DNA of 64,000 nt from Escherichia phage PECP14 (OQ870555.1), one strand, 5' to 3'. Numbered from the stretch's first letter, positions 10-9,935 are shown. Numbers and translations: made by a program. Notes: generated from the letters alone by a model not told the origin.

Positions 10-127
10 TGTCGGATTCGCACATATAAAAAATATTTCCCATCGGATTTGCACACTACCAAAAATTGTCGGATTCGCACATGCACGCTGGCACGTAATC
101 CGTGGGGGCAAATGTCGGATTTGCACA
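10..127. repeat. Four dispersed copies of a 15-bp motif TGTCGGATT(C/T)GCACA (10-24, 41-55, 67-81, 113-127)
   Basis: Read directly: near-identical 15-mers at four positions in non-coding DNA at the window start; candidate protein-binding sites. Confidence 0.8.
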
Positions 128-166
128 AAAGCGCAGGGCAAATAGAAAATGCCCTGCCTGCCGAAA

Positions 167-307
167 TGCGAATGATAATGAGATTGATTCGCATTTGAGA
201 AATTGAACGCGAATGAGAATGATTCGCGTTTAGAAAGCGGAATGAGAATGGTTATCATTTACAGAATTGAATGAGAGTGATTTGCATAATGAGAATGATC
301 TGCATTT
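167..307. repeat. Five tandem imperfect hairpin repeats, unit about GCGAATGAGAATGATTCGC(A/G)TTT
   Basis: Read directly: copies at 167-195, 208-230, 236-259, 268-286, 288-307; each contains the short palindrome GCGAAT...ATTCGC; not CRISPR-like (no uniform spacers). Confidence 0.8.
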
Positions 308-339
308 AGGAGGGGAAGTGAGAAACACTGTTATTTAAG

Positions 340-348
340 TTATCCACA
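340..348 (+). promoter_or_regulatory. DnaA box (TTATCCACA, perfect 9-mer consensus)
   Basis: Exact match to E. coli DnaA box consensus TTATNCACA; part of a 24-bp direct repeat GTTATCCACAGnnTTATnAACAG (339-362 and 400-423). Confidence 0.6.
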
Positions 349-400
349 GGTTTATTAACAGCACGATTTGACTTGACAAAATCCTAGCGATTTTGAGGCG

Positions 401-409
401 TTATCCACA
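401..409 (+). promoter_or_regulatory. DnaA box (TTATCCACA)
   Basis: Exact consensus 9-mer; lies inside the left arm of the 47-bp inverted repeat. Confidence 0.6.
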
Positions 410-447
410 GACTTATCAACAGGTTATTCTACTGTATAAATATACAG
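401..447. repeat. Left arm of a 47-bp inverted repeat (partner 4040-4086)
   Basis: Reverse complement of 4040-4086 equals 401-447 with 2 mismatches; each arm contains a DnaA box plus the LexA-like palindrome. Confidence 0.85.
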
Positions 448-449
448 TA
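430..449. promoter_or_regulatory. LexA (SOS) box-like palindrome TACTGTATAAATATACAGTA
   Basis: CTGT-N8-ACAG with an AT-only centre; 19/20 match to the ideal palindromic LexA operator TACTGTATATATATACAGTA. Function inferred, not demonstrated. Confidence 0.5.
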
Positions 450-561
450 TTCCTGCGTAGTGAATAACTCTAATATAGCTCTAAAACGCTCTATAACGCA
501 TTCTAACGCGTTTATTTTTGGGGGAGGTATTTTAATAAGGGGAAATTTGTTTGCAGGCAGA

Positions 562-590
562 AAAGGCGGGGCCGATAGTTGCGCCCCGTT
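562..590 (-). terminator. Rho-independent terminator-like hairpin (CGGGGC...GCCCCG) downstream of leftward gene 595-834
   Basis: GC-rich stem followed on the minus strand by CCTTTTCT; shares the motif CGCCCCGTTATTA with the hairpin at 1862-1885. Confidence 0.5.
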
Positions 591-594
591 ATTA

Positions 595-834
595 TTAGTC
601 TGCTATGTATTCCTTCTCGTAGTCGTCAAAGATCTGGACGGTTTCGGCTGGCGTATATCCATATGAATCAAAATGCGTACATGTTGAAACTGAATTGATC
701 CACGCCCCTAGCGCCGCCGTACTAGCTCCGCTTTTCTGCATTTCTAAAAATTGCGCATATTGCGCATCAGTTAAATGATGCTGCATAATATCGGTTTCTT
801 TACGTTCTACATATCGTAAAATTCTTACAGCCAT
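595..834 (-). CDS. hypothetical pre-early protein (79 aa)
   Basis: ORF in the leftward tandem array, followed by a terminator hairpin; no recognisable motif. Confidence 0.5.
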   Translation of the reverse strand: MAVRILRYVERKETDIMQHHLTDAQYAQFLEMQKSGASTAALGAWINSVSTCTHFDSYGYTPAETVQIFDDYEKEYIAD

Positions 835-961
835 GCCATTGCTCCTAGAATGAGAATGATTATCAATATCATTGTAAAGCCATTACCAAATCGTAAACGC
901 TGGGAATGTTTCCCAGCGGTATTATTAGATTTATGACTTTGTGTTTTTCGCCACCAGCTAT

Positions 962-1174
962 TCACGGTTTTAAATTCTCTATAGTTAATTTTGCGCGAAT
1001 AGTGATTCCATATAATTCGCCTCCCTTGTTTCTTACATCAGGTAGCCAGTCCCACAATTCAGAGTATCCGCTTAAAATTCCTAGCGATGCAAGATTAGCA
1101 ATAAAACCGGCTATAGTAACCGCTTCCAGTGAAATAGTTACACGATTATTAATAACTAAAGTAAACTTTTTCAT
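962..1174 (-). CDS. hypothetical protein (70 aa)
   Basis: ORF in the leftward array; 4-nt stop/start overlap with the upstream gene 1171-1515 suggests translational coupling. Confidence 0.45.
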   Translation of the reverse strand: MKKFTLVINNRVTISLEAVTIAGFIANLASLGILSGYSELWDWLPDVRNKGGELYGITIRAKLTIENLKP

Positions 1175-1515
1175 TGCGCTACCTTTCGAAACGCTGTTTC
1201 GATACTTTCAGCGGTTGATTGAATATATGCGCCTTTCATAATCAGGCGCTCCGTACATACTTTGCGGAAAATGTCAATAAATTCATTTTCATTTTCTGCT
1301 ACTAATGGCTCTCCCATAACCTGAATATCGCATGAGTTAAAAGTAAGAAACTGAAAGGCAAGCTCGCGAGCGACAACGGCATTAATCTTATAATGTGCTT
1401 TTCCTTCATAGATATTAACCACGCCTTTATAAACTGGTGAAAGCTGATTTAAATAGTTTGCTAATAATGCCGGACGGCAATTAGTAACAAAACGATTACC
1501 CTCGTAAATAACCAT
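1171..1515 (-). CDS. hypothetical protein (114 aa)
   Basis: ORF in the leftward array; coupled to 962-1174. Confidence 0.5.
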   Translation of the reverse strand: MVIYEGNRFVTNCRPALLANYLNQLSPVYKGVVNIYEGKAHYKINAVVARELAFQFLTFNSCDIQVMGEPLVAENENEFIDIFRKVCTERLIMKGAYIQSTAESIETAFRKVAQ

Positions 1516-1624
1516 TTGTCAAGCTCCTAAAGCTGGGAAAATATCAGGTACATTTTTAAAACAAATGCAGCGAATGAGCAAACAACGCCAACGGTAGCAA
1601 ACGCTAGAGCAATATATAAGGATC

Positions 1625-1843
1625 TCATAATACCCCACGAAAAGCAGCGTAAAAGGTGGCAAAGTGTTTAACCGTTTCGGCTACCAAATTTCCGCGCTTG
1701 TCAAATTTCTTTTCAGTAACACGAAACGCGTTTTTGTTGCGTGCTACATATTCGATTTTACAATCTGGACGCTCAAACGTGTTAACATCCACCAGCTTAA
1801 AACCTTTAGAACGGGCAAGGGAAACATTCTTTAACATTTGCAT
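1625..1843 (-). CDS. hypothetical protein (about 72 aa; start refined to internal ATG preceded by AGGAG)
   Basis: The listed ORF 1625-1930 runs through the hairpin at 1862-1885; the internal Met at 1843 has an AGGAG ribosome-binding site. Confidence 0.4.
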   Translation of the reverse strand: MQMLKNVSLARSKGFKLVDVNTFERPDCKIEYVARNKNAFRVTEKKFDKRGNLVAETVKHFATFYAAFRGVL

Positions 1844-1861
1844 GACTCCTAGTAAGGGAAT

Positions 1862-1885
1862 GAGGGGCGAAAGTAACGCCCCGTT
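1862..1885 (-). terminator. Hairpin GGGGCG-N7-CGCCCC between leftward genes
   Basis: GC stem read directly; the downstream T-run is weak, so this may be an attenuator or processing site. Confidence 0.35.
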
Positions 1886-1890
1886 ATTAA

Positions 1891-2121
1891 TTACATTAAA
1901 ACAATTTTCGCCGCTTGCTTTTTGGTGCAATGTTCTGATTTCAACGTGTCCAGCAAAAATCCGGCGGTTTGCTGGTCAATCTGATCATTATCATAAAGCG
2001 CCTGAATAGTAACATAAGTTTTACCTATCCCAAATTCCGAAACCATTTGATCAATGATCCAGCGATTAGATACCCAACCTTTACCAGTGAAAAGAGAGTC
2101 AGAAGAAGAGAAAGCAACCAT
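1891..2121 (-). CDS. hypothetical protein (about 76 aa)
   Basis: ORF with GGAGG 9 nt upstream of the ATG at 2121. Confidence 0.45.
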   Translation of the reverse strand: MVAFSSSDSLFTGKGWVSNRWIIDQMVSEFGIGKTYVTIQALYDNDQIDQQTAGFLLDTLKSEHCTKKQAAKIVLM

Positions 2122-2230
2122 TTTTAACGCCTCCAAAAAATTTTGGGAAAATTTTCAATCCACCGTTTCGGTGTAAAGGCATTATAACAAAAAAGGCCGC
2201 CGATTAAGGCGACCTTTACAAAACTTTACA

Positions 2231-2725
2231 TTAGACTATTTCTAATGCTTCAATGTTGAAACAGCGTTTTAATTCTTTCTGTAAAACGGCATATTCATCC
2301 CAACGGGAATTATCAGGAATATAAACAAGCTGTTTTAATCGATTTGCGTATAATAACGCCTTGTTACCAATTATTTCCGCGCCACCGTGTTTAATAATTA
2401 GTTTCATAACGGTATTAATAGGATCGCCGCCATTTACATAAGTACCAGACTTACTCAATTGATAATGATAAAGACTCGCATATACATTATCATTTTCAAT
2501 CCATTCCCCTGTTTCTTCATCTTCTTCCCCATCGCTACCGAAACGAGAAGCATTATCATATGCGTGTTCGTTTGCGAAAGCGTCCAGATCACAGCCAGCG
2601 GGAACAAAATGTTCCTCCGTCCAGCCCTCCCCGCAATAGCCAGTATGACAATCAACTAAAACGATCATATCGTGTTTAGCTTCATTCACACTTTCTAGCG
2701 AAAAGCCATATTTTTCTTCTGACAT
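2231..2725 (-). CDS. hypothetical acidic protein (164 aa) with Cys cluster (CHTGYCGEGW...GCD)
   Basis: ORF; acidic run SDGEEDEETGEW; function unknown. Confidence 0.55.
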   Translation of the reverse strand: MSEEKYGFSLESVNEAKHDMIVLVDCHTGYCGEGWTEEHFVPAGCDLDAFANEHAYDNASRFGSDGEEDEETGEWIENDNVYASLYHYQLSKSGTYVNGGDPINTVMKLIIKHGGAEIIGNKALLYANRLKQLVYIPDNSRWDEYAVLQKELKRCFNIEALEIV

Positions 2726-2761
2726 AATTAGTCTCCTAACAATTAACAGGGAAATAGTAAA

Positions 2762-2779
2762 GCGGGGAATAATCCCCGC
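2762..2779 (-). terminator. Hairpin GCGGGGA-ATAA-TCCCCGC (same hairpin as 6168-6185)
   Basis: Perfect 7-bp GC stem; on the minus strand followed by TTTACTATTT; sits between leftward genes 2789-3790 and 2231-2725. Confidence 0.5.
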
Positions 2780-2788
2780 TAGTAATTA

Positions 2789-3790
2789 TTATTCTGTTTC
2801 GGCGCTTTGAGTAAAGGTAGAAATGTCAATACCTTTTACCATTTCATCGATCATTTCAGCAATATTGAAACTCTGTACCATTTCCAACATTGCCGCTTCC
2901 ATTGCCGCGCCTGCTACCGCTTTCGCTTTCGCATTAGTCGGGGCGTACTGGTCAACCGCTACACTCAGCAGGTTAGCGATCACTACACGACCAATCGGCG
3001 TATCAATATAACCTTTAATCATAAACGGCGCTTTTTTCGCCGCTACTTTTGTGATTTGAGTCAGTGCAATTTTACCTGCTTCCAGTTTAGCAGCGTTAAC
3101 AACGGCGGATTTATTAGCGGCAACGATAGAAGATACTTTAGACATAATATTTCCTTTATTTTCAGTAGTTTGCGCATTTGCGCTTGAAGTTTGAGAGTTT
3201 ACAGCCTGTTTTGTTACGTTGTCAAGCGGTAAAAGTGTAAATCCAGCGTTTGCAACGTTTGATTCATTCCCATACTCTAAATAATCGTTAGGGATCAACA
3301 TGTTACCGCTAGCGCGTTCAAAACACAATACGCCAGTTGTTTCGATTGCGTCACTATCAGCACCTTTATAACTGGATGATAATTCACGCCAGATACTATT
3401 TAATAACGATCCGACACTATCAAGTCTGATACTATTTACTTTTGTTGCTGTTACCTGCTCTTTTTCTTGCACGTTATATAATCGCGCAATGTAACCATTA
3501 TGAGACTCACTATAACCAACAATGATAAAATCAATATCAGTTCCCCGACTATTACGGAAAATGTGATAATCACGGTTGAAAATTACTAGCGCCCTTGTCT
3601 GGTCTAGTAATAGCGTGAAATCATCAACTGAATAATGAGTATCATTATTGTCTAAAATTTCATCGTGAATCTTTTCTACAATAGTAGCGGTATGTTGTAC
3701 GCTTGCCGCACTACTACCATCTAGCAGGTTGCGCAAACTACCCTTAATAATAGTGGCGTTTGCTGGTACTGCAATTCTTACAGTAGACAT
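2789..3790 (-). CDS. hypothetical pre-early protein (333 aa)
   Basis: Long ORF with GAGGGAG upstream of the ATG; first gene of the leftward block; no motif recognised. Confidence 0.6.
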   Translation of the reverse strand: MSTVRIAVPANATIIKGSLRNLLDGSSAASVQHTATIVEKIHDEILDNNDTHYSVDDFTLLLDQTRALVIFNRDYHIFRNSRGTDIDFIIVGYSESHNGYIARLYNVQEKEQVTATKVNSIRLDSVGSLLNSIWRELSSSYKGADSDAIETTGVLCFERASGNMLIPNDYLEYGNESNVANAGFTLLPLDNVTKQAVNSQTSSANAQTTENKGNIMSKVSSIVAANKSAVVNAAKLEAGKIALTQITKVAAKKAPFMIKGYIDTPIGRVVIANLLSVAVDQYAPTNAKAKAVAGAAMEAAMLEMVQSFNIAEMIDEMVKGIDISTFTQSAETE

Positions 3791-4039
3791 TTCTTTGTCT
3801 CCCTCGTTAATCGGTGAGTGAATGATATAGATAATTGTTCGCTAGGGGCAAGAAAAAAGAAAAGGTTTTTTATTCCTTGCCTACTGCCTGTTTTTATGAT
3901 AGCCGCGCGTTTTCTATTTCTAGCTCTCTGTAAGCGTACACAAGGCTTTATTATAATAAGGGTAGCAGTGAGAAAACGCCGTGTAGCGCGTTCTAGGCCG
4001 CTTAAATTTGATTGCGGTTGTTACTGCTACCTATTTACC

Positions 4040-4055
4040 CTGTATATTTATACAG
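4040..4055. promoter_or_regulatory. LexA box-like palindrome CTGTATATTTATACAG
   Basis: CTGT-N8-ACAG with AT-only centre; mirror copy of the 430-449 element. Confidence 0.5.
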
Positions 4056-4077
4056 TAGAATAACCTGTATATAAGTC

Positions 4078-4086
4078 TGTGGATAA
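4078..4086 (-). promoter_or_regulatory. DnaA box (TGTGGATAA = TTATCCACA on the minus strand)
   Basis: Exact consensus 9-mer in inverted orientation. Confidence 0.6.
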
Positions 4087-4126
4087 GTCGCCAAAACGTC
4101 GCCTATTGCGTCAAGTTATTTTGTGC

Positions 4127-4135
4127 TGTGGATAA
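4127..4135 (-). promoter_or_regulatory. DnaA box (TGTGGATAA)
   Basis: Exact consensus 9-mer; a fifth 8/9 copy (AGTGGATAA) lies at 4411-4419. Confidence 0.55.
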
Positions 4136-4880
4136 CTTTGTGCATAACCTAAATGATAGTGGTTCTCACTTAGTCGATAGTTTCTTATAGTTATTATTTC
4201 TCTTTAATTTATAAGTATATTATATAATATGAAATAGTTAGTTGGCTAATAGGTTTTTAGAGTATTAATAGTCTGCTAACTGTTTCAGCTGTTACAATCC
4301 ACCAGCGTGATTATCCTCCTAGCGATTGTTAGTATGCTAATGGTCTGATACACGTCCAGACTTATTTGTCAATGAAAAATAACAGCAGAAAATACTTTTT
4401 TGAAAAATCAAGTGGATAACTCATTAAATTTCATTTTTGCTTTTTGTATAAGTTATTAACAGGGTCTAAAACGCTCTGTAAGCGATTCTAAGCGCCTCAA
4501 AGGAAAAGCTAGGCAAGTGCATTGCCTACTAGCCGTTATCGCCACTATGAGGATTTTAGATTTTGTCAAGTAGGGCAAAGCAAATATAAATGAAAAAATT
4601 ACTTGCTAAAATGGTTGTTTTGGTGTTATTCGCGCGCCCATTTCATTAAATTTAGTGCGCCGCTGGACGTTTGCGGGTAGTGGTTTTCTTTACGTTTCTT
4701 TACAAAAATACGCTTGCGCCATTTTCGGGAATAACCTATTATTTATCTCGTAGGACGGCGGGACGGAAACGAAACGCAAGATTACACGGCGGGGAAGTTT
4801 ACCGCCATGCTCTTTAAAAACTAGGGAACATCTTAAAGCCTATCGGCGGTAAACTTATATAATATAAGGAATCGACGATA

Positions 4881-5263: not shown

Positions 5264-5515
5264 ATGCAAAACGTTATTACCGCGCCGAAAGTAGGTCAAT
5301 CTGTTTTCATTCCTTTTGTAACTAAAACTGATGAATTAACCGGAAAAGCCGAACGTATCAAAGGTGCGGCGCTTGATCCCTTTGATAAGATTGAAGCGGT
5401 CTATGCGGAAACGGAACGCAGTAACAACGGCAAGCCTATTTATAACGTCCGTGTTAAATCTGGCGACGTTGTAAAGGTCATTCAGAAAGATGATAAATGG
5501 CAAGCTATCGCCTAA
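5264..5515 (+). CDS. hypothetical protein (83 aa)
   Basis: ORF preceded by the conserved initiation region ACCGGAGTATTAAAAATG, which recurs at 6200-6218. Confidence 0.5.
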   Translation: MQNVITAPKVGQSVFIPFVTKTDELTGKAERIKGAALDPFDKIEAVYAETERSNNGKPIYNVRVKSGDVVKVIQKDDKWQAIA

Positions 5516-5740
5516 TAGCTTATTAATAACCCGCGCCTTTAATCGGCGTAAATAAATAAGGCTAGCGCCTCATGTTAGATTTTCGATATATTAACCATGT
5601 AGTGTGAACAATGTTATGGCACACAATTTAAACTTATATGATTAGTGTTACTTTTATATTCCCCTGAAATATGGGGAATATATGGATTAACATTAGTTAA
5701 TCATAATCCCTTAATTAATAATTGAATGGAGTATTAAATT

Positions 5741-6157
5741 ATGTCTAACGTTAAAACCGAAAAAACCGCAAAATTCTCTTGGAACGAAGAAAACACTGAA
5801 AAAGCTGTTTCTATGTATTCTGAAATGGTCGCTAAAAGCGGAATTGAATTTGCTAACAGTGACGGCTTGAAAGAAATCGCCGCCGCCGTTGGTGCTGCTA
5901 GTCCGGTGTCTGTACGTTCTAAATTGACCAGTGCAAAAGCCTACCAGAAAAGCGATAAACCGCGTAAAGTTGGCGGCGGGTCTAGTATCCGTAAAGCTCA
6001 CTATGTGCGCGTCATTGCTAAACATGCCATTGATAGCGGCATTGTAAAAGATGCCGATGATCTGGCAAGTCTGGAAAGTGCAAAACTTGAAACGCTGGAC
6101 GCCGTAGCGCAATTGTTAGGCGTAGCGGAGGAAGTAAAACAGGCCGCAGGTGAATAA
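5741..6157 (+). CDS. hypothetical protein (138 aa)
   Basis: ORF with AATGGAG upstream of the start and a terminator hairpin downstream. Confidence 0.55.
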   Translation: MSNVKTEKTAKFSWNEENTEKAVSMYSEMVAKSGIEFANSDGLKEIAAAVGAASPVSVRSKLTSAKAYQKSDKPRKVGGGSSIRKAHYVRVIAKHAIDSGIVKDADDLASLESAKLETLDAVAQLLGVAEEVKQAAGE

Positions 6158-6167
6158 ATTTTAATTA

Positions 6168-6185
6168 GCGGGGAATAATCCCCGC
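6168..6185 (+). terminator. Hairpin GCGGGGA-ATAA-TCCCCGC after gene 5741-6157
   Basis: Identical hairpin to 2762-2779; followed by TATAATTTCCCTTT. Confidence 0.5.
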
Positions 6186-6215
6186 TATAATTTCCCTTTG
6201 ACCGGAGTTATTAAA

Positions 6216-6443
6216 ATGATCTTCTTTCCTAGTGAAGCGTTTATTTTAGGTTTATTTATAGTTGCCGCTATATTTATATTTAATTACGGCAAATATATAA
6301 TCTCTATTATCGGCATTAATTCAGCTTATGCCGCTGATATGTTTAAACGTCAAGCTAATAAACAAAAATATCTAGCGATTATATTTTTAACGCTGGCTAT
6401 CAGTTGCGGTTTTAGTTCTAGTCTTATGCCAATTCTAGAATAA
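6216..6443 (+). CDS. small membrane protein (about 75 aa, two predicted transmembrane helices)
   Basis: Hydrophobic stretches FILGLFIVAAIFIF and LAIIFLTLAISCGF; start taken at the ATG preceded by ACCGGAGTTATTAAA. Confidence 0.5.
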   Translation: MIFFPSEAFILGLFIVAAIFIFNYGKYIISIIGINSAYAADMFKRQANKQKYLAIIFLTLAISCGFSSSLMPILE

Positions 6444-6551
6444 TATTGCAAATTATAACGCCTTTTAAATTGTCCTCACTTCAGGCAAGGCGTTATATTT
6501 GGCAATATTGCCAGTATTAATATTTATCCCTTTATAGGAGTTGATTTAGTT

Positions 6552-8216
6552 ATGAATATTTCCGCAGAAAAACAAGCTCAAATTCTGAAAATGGCCGCAG
6601 ATTTTAACTTCTACGGTAAGCGTTTACGCGCTACTAAATTGGAAGTTTGCGACGATATTTCAAAAGCTGTTTATGATACGCCGAAACATTCGACCGCAAT
6701 TTGTGACTGGTTAGAAGCAAATAAGCCAGCGAAACCGAAAGCGGCAAAAGCTGAAAAGGCGATTAAAAATGATGATCGCCCCGAAGCGGCGGGAATTGTT
6801 TCTAGTACCGTTGAACAATGGGAAGTTAAATCCGGTCGCCGTTTTATTCTAACGTCGATTCAAAATAATACTTTCCCGCATAAAAACTTTTTAGCAAGTC
6901 TGGAAAAATTCGCTGAATATTGCGGCGCTGAATTGCTGATTAGTAAATTCATTTATAATAAAAATGGATTCCAGAACGGGGAAGGGGCAAACGGTATTAA
7001 ATACGATCCCGCATTTGATAAATATGTTTGTGATAAAAACGTATTTTTAAATAATCGCCGCTTTGCTTTCATGGCTGAAATTAACGTTTTACCAACGGCA
7101 GATTATCCGCTTTCAGGATTCGCAGAAACCGCCACGGCTTTAAATATCGAAGGTCTGGCAATTGGTCACGCTAAAATCACCGCTGAAAGTGTGCCAGCGT
7201 TAAAAGGTGAAGTCGTGCGCCGTATGTATTCAACCGGAACGGCGACACTAAAAAACTATATCCAGCAAAAGGCGGGACAAAAAGCCGAGGCTTTACATAA
7301 TTTCGGCGCTTTGCTGGTAGAGTTTGACGACGACGGAGAATTTTATTGCCGCCAGCTTGAAACAATGGACGAAAGCGGAATGTTCTACGATTTGAACGTG
7401 TGCGCTACCGCTACCGGATGTTATGAAACATCGGGCCATGTTCTAGGCTTGCAATATGGCGATATTCACGCCGAAAAACTAGATGATGATTGCGCCGTCG
7501 CTTCATGGGCTAGTGAAAACAGCTTGCTTGATATTCTTAAACCGAAATATCAATTTATTCATGATGTGCATGATTTTACATCCCGCAATCACCATAACCG
7601 CGCAAGTGGTGTATTCCTTGCTAAACAGTACGCCGCAGGACGTGATAAAGTTATTGATGATTTGATTGATACCGGTCGCGTGTTGGAATCTATGGAGCGT
7701 GATTTCTCTCAAACAATCATTGTGGAATCTAACCATGATTTAGCTCTTTCACGCTGGCTAGATGATCGTAACGCTAACATTAAGGACGATCCCGCAAACG
7801 CGGAACTGTATCACCGTCTAAACGCTGCGATTTACGCCGCTATTGCTGAAAAGGATGATACCTTTAACGTGCTAGATTACGCCTTGCGGAACGTCGCAGG
7901 ATGCGAATTTAACGCCATTTTCTTGACTACTGACCAGTCATTTAAAATCGCTGGCATTGAATGCGGCGTACATGGTCACAACGGCATTAACGGCAGTCGG
8001 GGCAATCCTAAGCAGTTTAAAAAGTTGGGACGCCTTAACACTGGTCATACTCATACGGCTAGCATTTACGGCGGCGTTTATACCGCTGGCGTGGCGGGGT
8101 CGCTTGATATGGGCTACAACGTGGGCGCGTCAAGCTGGACGCAAACGCATTTAATTACCTATGCAAACGGTCAAAGAACATTGATTGACTTTAAGAATGG
8201 TAAATTCTTTGCATAA
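6552..8216 (+). CDS. A1: A1-like pre-early protein, calcineurin-type metallophosphoesterase (554 aa)
   Basis: Phosphoesterase motifs GDIHAE and ESNHDL in the translation; size and position next to A2-like and dmp genes match my recollection of T5 A1 (about 556 aa). Confidence 0.8.
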   Translation: MNISAEKQAQILKMAADFNFYGKRLRATKLEVCDDISKAVYDTPKHSTAICDWLEANKPAKPKAAKAEKAIKNDDRPEAAGIVSSTVEQWEVKSGRRFILTSIQNNTFPHKNFLASLEKFAEYCGAELLISKFIYNKNGFQNGEGANGIKYDPAFDKYVCDKNVFLNNRRFAFMAEINVLPTADYPLSGFAETATALNIEGLAIGHAKITAESVPALKGEVVRRMYSTGTATLKNYIQQKAGQKAEALHNFGALLVEFDDDGEFYCRQLETMDESGMFYDLNVCATATGCYETSGHVLGLQYGDIHAEKLDDDCAVASWASENSLLDILKPKYQFIHDVHDFTSRNHHNRASGVFLAKQYAAGRDKVIDDLIDTGRVLESMERDFSQTIIVESNHDLALSRWLDDRNANIKDDPANAELYHRLNAAIYAAIAEKDDTFNVLDYALRNVAGCEFNAIFLTTDQSFKIAGIECGVHGHNGINGSRGNPKQFKKLGRLNTGHTHTASIYGGVYTAGVAGSLDMGYNVGASSWTQTHLITYANGQRTLIDFKNGKFFA

Positions 8217-8268
8217 TTAAATTTAATCGGCGGTTGAAATATACCGCCATTAATAAAAGGTTTATTAA

Positions 8269-8526
8269 ATGAATATTGTATTACCTAAAACACTGGATAA
8301 AAAGCAGTATATAACGCCGGATGATATGGAATGCGGCAAGGTATACCAATTCGATTATATGTTGGCTAGTCCGACGAATACAGGTTGTATTATTGCAGTT
8401 GATACCCGTGATAATGACGTATTAACGTTTAATGATTATTCTGACTTTATGGAATGGTTAGATGATCAAAGTATTACTAATAACGGCGAATTAACGCCGT
8501 ATCAATTAACAATTGCAATTAAATAA
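8269..8526 (+). CDS. hypothetical protein (85 aa)
   Basis: ORF between the A1 and A2-like genes. Confidence 0.45.
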   Translation: MNIVLPKTLDKKQYITPDDMECGKVYQFDYMLASPTNTGCIIAVDTRDNDVLTFNDYSDFMEWLDDQSITNNGELTPYQLTIAIK

Positions 8527-8562
8527 ATTAATCCCGTAATTAAATAATCTGGAGTCATAAAC

Positions 8563-8955
8563 ATGAAACAACAAAATATTCCTTTTGATCGCGCTACTTC
8601 TTCCATCGTTCTAGTTTATTCTAATGGCGAACGTTATCACGTCGAGGCGGGGCAAGTTAATTTAGATTTGCTGAATTATAACGACGCTTTGCAGGTTACT
8701 ACCTTTGCTTATGATACCGGCAAAGTGGCAAGCCATACAAAAGCAAAAGGCGTTTACGCTGATACTTTGACAGTGCAAACAATTATTATTGATGCGCTTA
8801 AATCCGGTCTAGCGTTTGCAGTTGTTAAGCCGTGTCCGGTCTGCCATCCCGAAGCTAGCGCGATGGTTTACACTTGCGCGGGGATTCGCTCTAGTGTACA
8901 TGGTGAAGATCTTAGCTTTATCGCCGATGCTCTCGCTTTTGGTCTGGCGTTCTAA
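8563..8955 (+). CDS. A2-like pre-early protein (130 aa)
   Basis: Size and position after A1 are consistent with T5 A2 (about 14-15 kDa); assigned by synteny only. Confidence 0.5.
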   Translation: MKQQNIPFDRATSSIVLVYSNGERYHVEAGQVNLDLLNYNDALQVTTFAYDTGKVASHTKAKGVYADTLTVQTIIIDALKSGLAFAVVKPCPVCHPEASAMVYTCAGIRSSVHGEDLSFIADALAFGLAF

Positions 8956-8978
8956 TAGTTAATTGAACATTGCCAGCT

Positions 8979-9009
8979 AATCTAATATAATTAGCTGGCA
9001 AGATTGAAT
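8979..9009. other. Perfect 11-bp stem hairpin TGCCAGCTAAT-N7-ATTAGCTGGCA between A2-like gene and dmp
   Basis: Read directly; no T-run follows, so it may be a processing or regulatory structure rather than a terminator. Confidence 0.5.
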
Positions 9010-9042
9010 TAACCTAAATCCCTTAAATGGAGAATGTAACAA

Positions 9043-9777
9043 ATGAATCAAGTCAACATGAATATTACCCGCACTTTCCCGCATATTTCCCGCGTTATGA
9101 TTTGGGATTTAGACGGAACGATTATAAATTCTTTCCATCGTGTAGCGCCTTGCTTTGACGATAACGGGAATTTAGATTTAGTTAAGTATTCCCGCGAAGC
9201 CTGCAAACATGAATTAATTATGCAGGATTCCTTATTACCATTGGTTGAATATATGCGCCAATGTATGAATGATCCCAATACCTTAAACCTTATTTGTACC
9301 GCTCGCTTAATGGGTAAATCTGATTATTATTTCTTGCGTAAACAAAGTCTAAGAGGGCGCGGAAATAGTAATATTCGCGTATTTTCCCGCGATACATTAC
9401 ATAAATACTTTGATGCAAATAAGGTTAGCGAAATATACCACAGTAAAGACGCTGTATATAAATCTTATTACTTTGAACTGTTTAAACAGCTATACCCTAA
9501 CGCTGATTTTACGATGATTGATGATCATAAAGGTGTATTATCGGCGGCGGCAAGTGCTGGATTTAAAACGCTGGACGCTCAAGCCGTTAATGATATCCTA
9601 TCAATCGGGGTAACATTGATCGGTGAAACCTTTATTGATGAATCGTTAGATGATGATAACGATTATCAATTCCTAGCCGAACGTTTAAAAATGTGTTGGG
9701 AAGGTATGACCGAGGAAGAACGCGCGGAATATAGTACCACACCGCAACAATTCATTGATAAATTAAAAGTTGCCTAA
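9043..9777 (+). CDS. dmp: 5'-deoxyribonucleotidase, HAD superfamily (244 aa)
   Basis: HAD motif I (IWDLDGTII) near the N-terminus; length matches my recollection of T5 Dmp. Confidence 0.75.
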   Translation: MNQVNMNITRTFPHISRVMIWDLDGTIINSFHRVAPCFDDNGNLDLVKYSREACKHELIMQDSLLPLVEYMRQCMNDPNTLNLICTARLMGKSDYYFLRKQSLRGRGNSNIRVFSRDTLHKYFDANKVSEIYHSKDAVYKSYYFELFKQLYPNADFTMIDDHKGVLSAAASAGFKTLDAQAVNDILSIGVTLIGETFIDESLDDDNDYQFLAERLKMCWEGMTEEERAEYSTTPQQFIDKLKVA

Positions 9778-9795
9778 CAATTAAAAATAAAATAG

Positions 9796-9830
9796 TCACG
9801 GTGTGTAACGATAACATGCCGTGACTATTA
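9796..9830 (-). terminator. Rho-independent terminator (stem TAGTCACGG / CCGTGACTA, then TTTTATTTTT on minus strand)
   Basis: 9-bp stem plus T-run; closes the leftward small-gene operon and lies just after the dmp stop. Confidence 0.55.
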
Positions 9831-9935
9831 GCTTGCTAAGTACCGGGGCGGTAATGAGACTCATTCTCATCTAGGGAACCTCTGGGCACACCTTCATGTG
9901 TAATCTTAGGAGATTTGGCAAAAGTCAAATTAGCG

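Follow-up and report, generated by a model that had tools for sequence, protein, structure and literature searches.

Results

Architecture of the locus

The window, a 64,000-nucleotide stretch of Escherichia phage PECP14 (OQ870555.1), contains a minus-strand pre-early cassette that is bracketed, inside a T5-like terminal repeat, by the two arms of an inverted repeat (Table 1). The 47-bp inverted repeat proposed in the earlier note (401–447 and 4040–4086) is present as stated, with precisely 2 mismatches (TTATCAACA versus TTATATACA), and it is the core of a larger element that a repeat search extended to 132 nt (316–447 and 4040–4171; 78% complementary, separated by 3592 nt). Both arms have the same fixed layout: two DnaA-box pairs 61 bp apart and, 8 bp past the inner pair, a palindrome, which invariably forms the end of the arm that faces the cassette.

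Between the arms, where seven leftward genes had been placed, 7–9 minus-strand ORFs were found. A Pfam search of nine cassette and flanking proteins returned DUF7566 only and no recombinase or invertase domain. The cassette is self-contained and non-essential, with its own promoter and terminator; its T5 equivalent is dispensable, a deletion being viable. The promoter region (3791–3908) is homologous to T5 6377–6494, which includes an annotated feature at 6411–6489, and the T5 gene-011 promoter is stated to be experimentally characterised. The terminator is strong and lies ~112–117 bp from the palindrome in the window, T5, Proteus phage Stubb and Vibrio phi3, and the T5 annotation has a terminator at the equivalent place. 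The phased repeats near this end of the cassette carry a CTAAAACG motif ~31 bp from the palindrome. They have a second copy at 4463–4493 and 86–90% matches in 38 mobilizable plasmids.

Table 1. Coordinates of the inverted repeat, its sites and the enclosed cassette in the window
Feature	Position	Strand	Remarks
DRD-type direct repeats (AATGAGAATGATTCGC...)	165–337	+	flank outer end of arm; homologous to T5 9534–9878; described by Davison
Injection-stop-side arm with terminal palindrome	316–449	+	T5 IRD'-spacer-IRC'; ~90% identity to T5 NC_005859 9409–9542
Outer DnaA pair, TTATCCACA-ggt-TTATTAACA	340–360	+	second box 352–360; 3-bp spacing as Davison describes
Inner DnaA pair, TTATCCACA-gac-TTATCAACA	401–421	+	second box 413–421; 61 bp start-to-start from outer pair
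LexA-type palindrome, TACTGTATAAATATACAGTA	430–449		26.1 bits; heterology index ~0.5; 8 bp from inner DnaA pair
Three phased ~10-bp repeats, TCTAAAACGC / TCTATAACGC / ATTCTAACGC	478–521	+	end in weak hairpin and T-run
Bidirectional intrinsic terminator	566–594		cassette 3' end; ~117 bp from palindrome; dG -12.7 and -16.7 kcal/mol
Pre-early cassette (T5.011–017 equivalent)	595–3790	-	7–9 ORFs: 333-aa DUF7566 protein, T5.015-like 114-aa protein, small ORFs
Cassette promoter, TTGCCC-18-TATCAT	3822–3851	-	homologous to T5 promoter upstream of gene 011
Inner-arm LexA-type palindrome, TACTGTATAAATATACAGGG (read from DnaA side)	4038–4057		22.8 bits
Inner arm	4038–4171	-	T5 IRC-spacer-IRD; boxes 4066–4074*, 4078–4086, 4127–4135, 4139–4147
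Inner-arm partner boxes, TTATGCACA and TTATATACA	4139–4147; 4066–4074	-	beside 4127 and 4078 boxes
Promoter-like sequence, TAGCCA-18-TATAAT	4219–4248	-	outside inner arm, reads through arm to cassette; conserved at T5 6052–6085; consensus match only

By its 132-nt arms, their orthology to T5 9409–9542 and T5 6098–6230, and the DRD repeats at 165–337, which adjoin the injection-stop-side arm as in T5, the element is the T5 IRD'/IRC'–IRC/IRD inverted repeat. In T5, IRD'-spacer-IRC' is Repeat Region 3, the injection stop signal, and IRC-spacer-IRD, which stands between the promoters on the A2 side and the gene-011 block, is Repeat Region 2. The architecture, with eight DnaA boxes, has already been published (Wang 2005; Davison 2015; Davison 2020, bioRxiv 10.1101/866236). 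Nothing structural differs from the T5 repeats (Heusterspreute 1987; Wang 2005; Davison 2015; Davison 2020): the length of 131–132 bp, the location in the terminal repeat, the DnaA pairs 3 bp apart and the position of one arm beside DRD are shared, and the enclosed distance is 1.7–4.2 kb here versus 1.85–4.26 kb in Davison (bioRxiv 10.1101/866236). The mirrored DnaA-box repeat architecture is known, not new, and the earlier note had correctly assigned it to the T5 injection-stop and pre-early region, where both DnaA boxes and repeats had been described before (bioRxiv 10.1101/866236).

DnaA boxes

All four perfect DnaA boxes lie where they had been claimed, in and outside each arm of the 47-bp core. 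The box TTATCCACA occurs four times in the 64 kb (340 and 401 on the plus strand, 4078 and 4127 on the minus strand), each time within an arm of the full repeat; 0.71 copies are expected in shuffled sequence, and 1 of 100 shuffles reached 4. An extra consensus or one-off box stands 3 bp from every perfect box in both arms, which gives each arm four DnaA/DnaA* boxes in two 3-bp-spaced pairs (340/352 and 401/413, plus strand; 4078/4066* and 4139/4127, minus strand). Boxes matching the consensus TTATNCACA are clustered, and boxes accompany the palindrome in every lineage sampled. The arm boxes are, by sequence, predicted DnaA sites. A membrane-DnaA model has been offered for them by Davison as a hypothesis only (bioRxiv 10.1101/866236).

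A LexA-type palindrome at the end of each arm

The motif CTGT-N8-ACAG is present three times in the 64 kb against 0.8 expected, and two of these copies, at 432–447 and 4040–4055, are the arm palindromes. Their description in the earlier note as near-ideal LexA operators is borne out by the weight-matrix scoring suggested there (26.1 and 22.8 bits). The matrix rests on a provisional set of 30 E. coli SOS boxes, which themselves score 12.4–24.5 bits; when it was checked against SOS/LexA papers, the 20-bp consensus string TACTGTATATATATACAGTA alone was found there. On this scale the better palindrome exceeds the best E. coli SOS box in the matrix (24.5 bits), the next best match in the window reaches 16.8 bits and is intragenic, and the heterology index of the palindromes, on the same provisional matrix, is ~0.5–4. 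The palindrome matches the LexA consensus at 19 of 20 positions, and it combines the CTGT-N8-ACAG frame and AT-rich centre of gammaproteobacterial LexA operators with a score in the range of proven sites. Judged by sequence, the 20-bp palindrome is an operator of consensus grade for LexA, the SOS repressor of the host, and host LexA probably occupies it.

Literature searches of accessible papers found no LexA or SOS reading of the T5-like palindrome, in agreement with the earlier note, which could attribute paired LexA sites to no prior description. LexA and SOS are nowhere mentioned in bioRxiv 10.1101/866236, where the terminal palindrome is handled only as a palindrome. The new element is the LexA-type reading of the palindrome; the structure around it is known.

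Conservation and variation of the palindrome

The earlier note had looked to absence of the motifs from related phages as evidence against it; the motifs persist across the phage family. Both arms were found in 38 of 38 close loci, and the palindrome is identical or near-identical across 31 distinct arm sequences and in distant genera. In Klebsiella, Pantoea, Proteus and three Vibrio phage lineages it adjoins TTATCCACA boxes and scores 19–26 bits, where shuffles yield at most 0.01 palindrome-plus-box matches per locus. In those distant phages A1 identity is only 32–42% and A2 identity only 34%. The motif types that stay constant are the two that match conserved host proteins, the sampled hosts all being Gammaproteobacteria that share one LexA motif.

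Variation within the palindrome follows a LexA-like tolerance profile under this family-wide conservation. The information profile along the site correlates with the E. coli SOS-box profile (Spearman 0.76, p=0.01), CTG and CAG are invariant in intact copies, and 42 of 45 substitutions have a frequency of 5% or more at the same position among E. coli sites. The AA and TT variants of the centre are reverse complements of each other and would therefore be neutral for a symmetric dimer. Interior positions 6–9 vary less than their counterparts in E. coli SOS boxes, which fits selection for extreme affinity and, equally, a different or additional binding protein. The ...ACAGGG ending of the inner palindrome is arm-specific and conserved, and has decayed to ACAA in 5 of 38 loci. 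The same 18-mer is also found at 72 further sites in viral contigs, there without DnaA boxes; 53 of the 72 are intergenic, and two sampled sites precede a DinI-family gene (by 20 nt) and an SOS-response-associated-peptidase (SRAP) gene (by 51 nt).

The mirrored arrangement

As a functional unit, the mirrored arrangement is not supported. The inner arm is missing from a published T5 deletion mutant that is viable, with a small-plaque phenotype only, and that from a much larger deletion; only one arm exists in Vibrio phage phi3; and the ACAA decay affects 5 of 38 loci. In the Sugarlandvirus-like lineage the cassette is inverted en bloc with the outer markers unmoved, whereas its orientation is identical in all 38 close loci. 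Given the viable deletion, the single arm of phi3 and the flipped cassette, the mirror itself is not essential. The injection-stop-side arm is the ancestral, universal copy, and the inner arm a dispensable paralogue. Davison 2020 noted opposite-strand transcription in Type 2/3 phages, but not the inversion between the arms.

Discussion

Alternative readings of the palindrome

The A1/A2 complex is needed for second-step transfer, and the palindrome could be a binding or cleavage site of such a phage protein, its LexA match being coincidence or mimicry. Davison suggests A1/A2 cleavage at one palindrome of the region, as part of a restriction-site hypothesis (bioRxiv 10.1101/866236), the interior is more conserved than LexA alone demands, and A2 is a DNA-binding protein kept in every module-bearing lineage. 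Its predicted structure has a three-helix DNA-binding domain; the model, however, resembles a GcrA/Myb-like fold rather than the winged helix of LexA. A 19/20 consensus palindrome whose variation tracks the LexA profile is very unlikely to arise by chance, the palindrome barely changes between phages whose A2 and A1 are down to 34% and 32% identity, and in unrelated phage contigs the identical 18-mer stands ahead of DinI and SRAP genes. Cleavage at both inverted copies of such a site would excise the cassette. We consider a phage-protein site rather unlikely. Quite unlikely, too, is a classical SOS operator at which LexA represses an adjacent promoter and couples part of pre-early expression to SOS, as LexA operators of mobile elements normally act, for example in GIL01 (PMC4551915). 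Candidates for the repressed transcription are read-through from the outer promoter-like sequence (TAGCCA-18-TATAAT, 4248 to 4219), which has a conserved counterpart in T5 and would read through the inner arm; a weak TTTACC-16-TAGAAT promoter with the LexA core as its spacer (TTTACC-CTGTATATTTATACAG-TAGAAT, 4034–4061); and a short transcript ending at the 495–521 hairpin, where hairpin and T-run follow the injection-stop-side palindrome by ~50–70 nt. These candidate promoters are nevertheless weak (9–10 of 12 matches), and neither the Klebsiella lineage nor the Vibrio phages conserve them. The injection-stop-side arm has no acceptable -35/-10 around its palindrome, and an Rfam search finds no small RNA there. 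The flipping of the AA/TT centre speaks against any directional element. The three pre-early promoters that have been characterised experimentally lie elsewhere, that of gene 011 ~200 bp from the palindrome. Since no characterised or conserved promoter overlaps it, with weak, non-conserved consensus matches the only candidates, the palindrome does not fit a classical operator, and SOS control of pre-early transcription as envisaged in the earlier note is disfavoured. Titration of host DnaA and LexA, also raised there, seems unlikely because two LexA sites per terminal repeat would hardly suffice and the DNA of the host is in any case being degraded.

The repeat might instead serve mainly as a recombination substrate or structural element, inverting the cassette or forming cruciforms that stall DNA entry, with the protein-site matches secondary. 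The en bloc inversion in the Sugarlandvirus-like lineage is in keeping with this, and the recurrent AA/TT centre flips resemble hairpin-mediated loop inversion. The invertible, inverted-repeat-flanked G segment of Mu and C segment of P1, served by the Gin and Cin invertases, likewise hold a gene block with both orientations known. Unlike them, this cassette has arms of 132 bp at 78% identity instead of short crossover sites, and the Pfam search of nine proteins found no invertase gene of the Gin/Hin type, nor any recombinase domain in the cassette. The inversion is a fixed difference between lineages, with one orientation in 38 of 38 close loci, which points to an evolutionary event, not a switch. 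The arms are ~90% identical to their orthologues and 78% to each other, with arm-specific conserved endings, and so are not undergoing exchange. The palindrome hairpins are weak (-4.6 and -2.9 kcal/mol), and neither the host-factor consensus identity of the conserved blocks nor the single-arm lineages would be explained. This account is highly improbable.

Comparison with other LexA sites

In the promoter region of E. coli uvrB, which LexA and DnaA co-regulate, boxes for both proteins are similarly clustered in a short non-coding stretch (PMC6015884). The uvrB sites overlap three defined promoters and regulate the gene, whereas the phage sites overlap no characterised promoter and lie, in a virulent phage, at the boundary of cassette and first-step DNA in a rigid geometry (8 bp, 61 bp). 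LexA operators of mobile elements, at promoter P1 of the temperate phage GIL01 (PMC4551915) and in SOS-controlled integron integrases (PMC3108266), are likewise host-consensus SOS boxes, through which such an element reads the LexA state of its host. Those sites lie in promoters of temperate or integrative elements, for which SOS is the signal of a dying host; the present site, by contrast, belongs to a strictly virulent phage, is no promoter site, is paired with DnaA boxes and stands at the injection-stop boundary.

A possible host-factor boundary

The best explanation overall, to which we give roughly an even chance, is a known repeat with LexA-type operators, for which a host-factor boundary is proposed. 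As first-step DNA enters, host LexA dimers and DnaA would occupy the arm sites and, with the adjacent terminators, would establish a nucleoprotein boundary at the end of that DNA. Transcription leaving the cassette would meet the terminator, then LexA, then DnaA. Such a boundary may prevent RNA polymerase from reaching the injection-stop repeats and the DNA that is still passing through the envelope, and this exclusion would help to hold the first-step state. Site quality, conservation throughout the family and the anatomy are established by sequence. The boundary role for LexA and DnaA is put forward tentatively, as possible rather than probable; efficient roadblocking of elongation is not an established property of LexA. 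T5 grows on recA1 laboratory strains, and RecA-dependent cleavage of LexA therefore cannot be an obligatory step.

That the host factor long sought for the T5 injection stop is LexA on the injection-stop-side arm, together with DnaA, is distinctly improbable. If true, arrest at ~8% of the genome, or its upkeep against transcription-driven pulling, would require LexA, and second-step DNA would leak without A1/A2 from a CTG>CAT phage or into a lexA(Def) host. The LexA-type site may offer a testable host factor for the two-step injection of T5 DNA.

Architecture of the Inverted Repeat and Its DnaA Boxes

The segment from 1 to 9.8 kb of the window belongs to a T5-like phage and represents its terminal repeat with the pre-early (first-step-transfer) genes, shown in the reverse of the T5 convention; it matches T5-like phages of Salmonella and Escherichia at 93-96% identity. 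The terminal repeat ends beyond dmp, at ~9780-9900, where minus-strand genes begin. The source record evidently holds one collapsed terminal-repeat copy or is circularly permuted, which places the right-end copy of both arms outside the window. Three A2 proteins (P0006, P0058, and P0001) that are 96-99% identical to that of the window were deposited as hypothetical proteins of 'Brucella melitensis', 'Enterococcus faecalis', and 'Salmonella enterica' on contigs of ~51-123 kb, which suggests that T5-like phage genomes contaminate bacterial assemblies.

Coordinates of the features in the window and in related loci
Feature	Location	Strand	Remarks
A2	5741-6157	+	
A1	6552-8216	+	
dmp	~9044-9778		
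T5.011-017-type genes (cassette)	595-3790	-	
DnaA-box/LexA arms	316-447 / 4040-4171		132-nt inverted repeat, 78% complementary
Cassette terminator	566-594		3' flank of cassette
Cassette terminator equivalents	window 566-594; T5 (L001) ~9275-9296; Proteus phage Stubb (L044) ~4690; Vibrio phage phi3 (L045) ~7750		
Inverted cassette loci	L039 4111-8258; Klebsiella phage B01 (L048) 935-4790		compare window 316-4171
Phased-repeat element	window 478-521, 4463-4493; L049 2500-2545; L050 2505-2545		
18-bp direct repeat	ATTGTCGGATTCGCACAT at 8-25 and 65-82; AATGTCGGATTTGCACAA at 111-128		

All elements that an earlier note had described around the cassette are present in the window, including the 47-bp core of the inverted repeat with its 2 mismatches; the full repeat is longer than this core. 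All four perfect TTATCCACA boxes in 64 kb fall within the arms (0.71 expected), and each has, 3 bp off, a partner that is either a consensus or a one-off box, so that every arm carries four. CTGT-N8-ACAG occurs three times in the window, and the arm palindromes account for two of these sites. The 18-bp direct repeat, present three times beyond the DRD repeats, belongs to the repeat jungle already published for the injection-stop region. As RNA, the arms could pair as a 132-nt long-range duplex around the whole operon mRNA; this duplex, which would be an RNase III-type substrate, requires transcription from the outer promoter-like element (4248->4219) through the cassette and beyond its terminator.

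The mirror-symmetric DnaA-box architecture is already known from the work of Davison, who compared 25 T5-like phages and described a 131-bp inverted repeat, eight DnaA or DnaA* boxes paired at 3 bp, an inter-arm distance that varies among these phages, and a model of DNA retention by membrane-bound DnaA (bioRxiv 10.1101/866236). [quoted passage not shown] LexA and SOS are not mentioned in that paper (bioRxiv 10.1101/866236), and outside Davison 2015, Wang 2005, and Heusterspreute 1987, a literature search returned no paper tying T5 or its relatives to LexA sites. The LexA reading of the palindrome thus appears to be new; the structure is known, and the function attached to this reading is an unproven proposal.

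The Palindrome as a LexA-Type Site

The palindromes at the cassette-facing ends of the arms were scored with a LexA weight matrix assembled for this analysis from a set of 30 E. coli SOS boxes. Their description as near-ideal LexA operators is borne out by this matrix, on which site 430-449 (TACTGTATAAATATACAGTA) reaches 26.1 bits (heterology index ~0.5), compared with 24.5 bits for the best training site, and site 4038-4057 reaches 22.8 bits. The 20-bp LexA consensus string is found in published SOS/LexA papers. The third-ranked LexA-type site in 64 kb, which is intragenic, reaches 16.8 bits; a broader use of LexA by the phage was rejected because the remaining matches in the window are weak and intragenic.

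Natural variation of the site follows the same specificity. The information content of its variants, position by position, is correlated with the E. coli profile (Spearman 0.76, p=0.01), 42 of 45 substitutions across distinct variants are tolerated by LexA, CTG and CAG are unchanged in every intact copy, and the interior is conserved beyond the level of E. coli sites. The palindrome is statistically and phylogenetically solid as a LexA-type sequence feature. The same 18-mer occurs without DnaA boxes at at least 72 other viral-contig sites, 53 of them intergenic; two sampled sites lie directly upstream of a DinI-family gene and an SOS-response-associated-peptidase gene, which points to ordinary SOS operator use elsewhere. 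Judged from sequence, the 18-mer is coupled to DnaA boxes in T5-like phages only.

Conservation in Close and Distant Relatives

Of the 40 loci recovered via A2, 38 are from close relatives, and every one of these has both arms. Among 40 copies assigned to the injection-stop-side arm, 32 have a site that reads TACTGTATA[AA/TT]TATACAGTA, and the rare variants (CTGG, TAC, ACAC, and a leading C) all occur in genuine SOS boxes. On the inner arm, the ending ...ACAGGG is constant, with decay to ACAA in 5 loci. At the palindrome centre (438-441 and equivalents in loci L002-L041), 2 bp alternate between AA and TT, with 21 AA and 11 TT copies on the injection-stop side and the same alternation on inner arms. 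This change turns the site into its own reverse complement, a pattern that suggests hairpin-mediated loop inversion and that is neutral for a symmetric dimer.

Since the whole arm is conserved in close relatives, discriminating power rests with the distant ones, namely Klebsiella phage B01 (A1 74% identical), Pantoea phage AAS21 (65%), Proteus phage Stubb (42%), and the Vibrio phages phi3, Noelle, and 70E34-5 (32-34%). In all six, a palindrome of 19-26 bits adjoins TTATCCACA boxes, and the distance from box start to site start (~28-29 bp) is equal in the window, phi3, and Noelle. Shuffles gave at most 0.01 box-plus-palindrome matches per locus; the chance rate of the 4+4-bp motif alone is ~0.6 per 20 kb. 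In phi3 (L045 7539-7637) and Noelle (L047 427-524), the unit of TTATCCACA and palindrome stands in tandem, ~50 bp apart, and the upstream palindrome is decayed (…TATACAT; 15.9 bits in Noelle). A1 is also encoded by phages of Alphaproteobacteria, Bacteroidota, and cyanobacteria, which are not T5-like.

A Fixed Module on the Injection-Stop Side

The mirrored arrangement emphasized in the earlier note is not essential as a functional unit, as T5 DLDR is viable and phi3 has a single arm. According to a 2026 preprint, DLDR is a hegG-to-017 deletion with smaller plaques. Its primers map the deletion to ~5390-9160 of NC_005859, which takes out the inner arm (6098-6228) together with the promoter of gene 011 and retains the injection-stop-side arm (9388-9544). 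The single arm of phi3, ~520 bp inside the inner end of the terminal repeat, fits Davison's single-arm 'Type 4' class (bioRxiv 10.1101/866236). Because paralogous arms are 78% identical and orthologous arms ~90%, each with arm-specific endings, concerted evolution was rejected; by these identities, the arms are old duplicates that evolve separately.

The cassette itself is invertible. In the Sugarlandvirus-like lineage (L039-L041 and Klebsiella phage B01), whose gp011-like gene shows 61% protein identity, it reads from the injection-stop-side arm to the inner arm, opposite to its direction in the window, T5, Pantoea, Stubb, and phi3. Of the outer markers, neither the DRD repeats at one end nor the A2-side region at the other has moved. 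The 3' flank of the cassette, comprising the terminator 112-117 bp from the palindrome and a CTAAAACG motif at ~31 bp, lies on the injection-stop-side arm in the T5 type and on the inner arm in the Sugarlandvirus type, as expected for inversion with breakpoints in the arms. Davison's account describes these genes merely as 'transcribed from the opposite strand' (bioRxiv 10.1101/866236), whereas inversion en bloc emerges from the present analysis. No recombinase domain was found in the cassette, whose orientation is fixed within each lineage, and we read the inversion as an evolutionary event, not a switch.

The terminator-palindrome distance is near constant in T5, Stubb, and phi3, so that the stretch from terminator to DnaA boxes behaves as a single module of fixed length. 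Its order is invariant: cassette end, terminator, ~115 bp with CTAAAACGC repeats, LexA site, 8 bp, and DnaA pair, followed by a second pair at 61 bp (start to start) and direct repeats. Given a dispensable inner arm and an invertible cassette, attention should focus on this injection-stop-side module of terminator, CTAAAACGC repeats, LexA site, and DnaA pairs.

The phased-repeat element, ~30 nt from the palindrome, consists of three ~10-bp repeats (TCTAAAACGC / TCTATAACGC / ATTCTAACGC) followed by a hairpin and T-run. The CTAAAACGC motif also adjoins the palindrome in T5, phi3, and Noelle, and the Klebsiella lineage has a CTAGAACG variant of it. In 38 mobilizable plasmids, the non-coding interval from mob genes to the rep/iteron origin contains sequences that match the element at 86-90% (E 3e-4 to 4e-3). 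A search of Rfam gave no family for the element, whose possible roles are those of a bidirectional terminator common to both, a protein site, and a small transcript. Rfam likewise returned no match at the arms or in the plasmid elements, and a known RNA family was rejected there. A host or plasmid origin of the arm was rejected, as it has no match in 5,426 E. coli genomes and the plasmid matches are limited to the CTAAAACGC element outside the arm.

Candidate Ligands and Function

The constancy of precisely the two motif types that fit conserved host proteins argues for host-factor binding, an inference limited by the CTGT-N8-ACAG specificity of gammaproteobacterial LexA being common to all hosts sampled. 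LexA probably occupies the palindrome. Alternatively, a phage protein might bind there and the likeness to LexA sites be coincidental; this is unlikely, given that A2, the phage's own DNA-binding candidate, is 34% identical between the window and phi3 and is predicted to form a three-helix domain of GcrA/Myb-like type in place of the winged helix of LexA. A recombination or structural element has very little probability, since the ssDNA hairpins of the palindromes (-4.6 and -2.9 kcal/mol) are too weak for a cruciform or hairpin role.

SOS-coupled control, one of the roles first suggested, would make the palindrome a classical operator of an unmapped promoter or small transcript. This is decidedly unlikely: no characterised promoter coincides with the palindrome, that of gene 011 lies ~200 bp off, and the sole overlapping candidates (TTTACC-16-TAGAAT and TCAACA / TATAAA-type) are weak and not conserved outside close relatives. 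Titration of LexA or DnaA was rejected, with just two LexA sites per terminal repeat and a host genome that is presumably being destroyed. We instead propose that host LexA and DnaA would form a nucleoprotein boundary that reinforces the terminator, bars transcription from the injection-stop repeats, and keeps transcription off DNA still threaded through the envelope. This boundary role is tentative, with the balance against it, and direct involvement of LexA in arresting DNA entry is highly unlikely. T5 grows on recA1 strains, so RecA-dependent LexA cleavage is non-obligatory; in A2 mutants, host DNA is degraded and transfer fails. Both points led us to reject LexA cleavage as an obligatory trigger of the second step.

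For over 50 years, the stop of T5 DNA entry at 8% of the genome has lacked an explanation, and a 2026 paper still describes second-step transfer as poorly understood. The sole molecular proposal for the stop is a hypothesis, membrane-bound DnaA at the DnaA boxes. The LexA reading would add a second host protein with a consensus-grade, family-wide conserved predicted site 8 bp from those boxes, and through it an old question becomes experimentally approachable, simply and cheaply. If true, it would represent an unusual use of an SOS box, by a strictly virulent phage and at a site away from a promoter.
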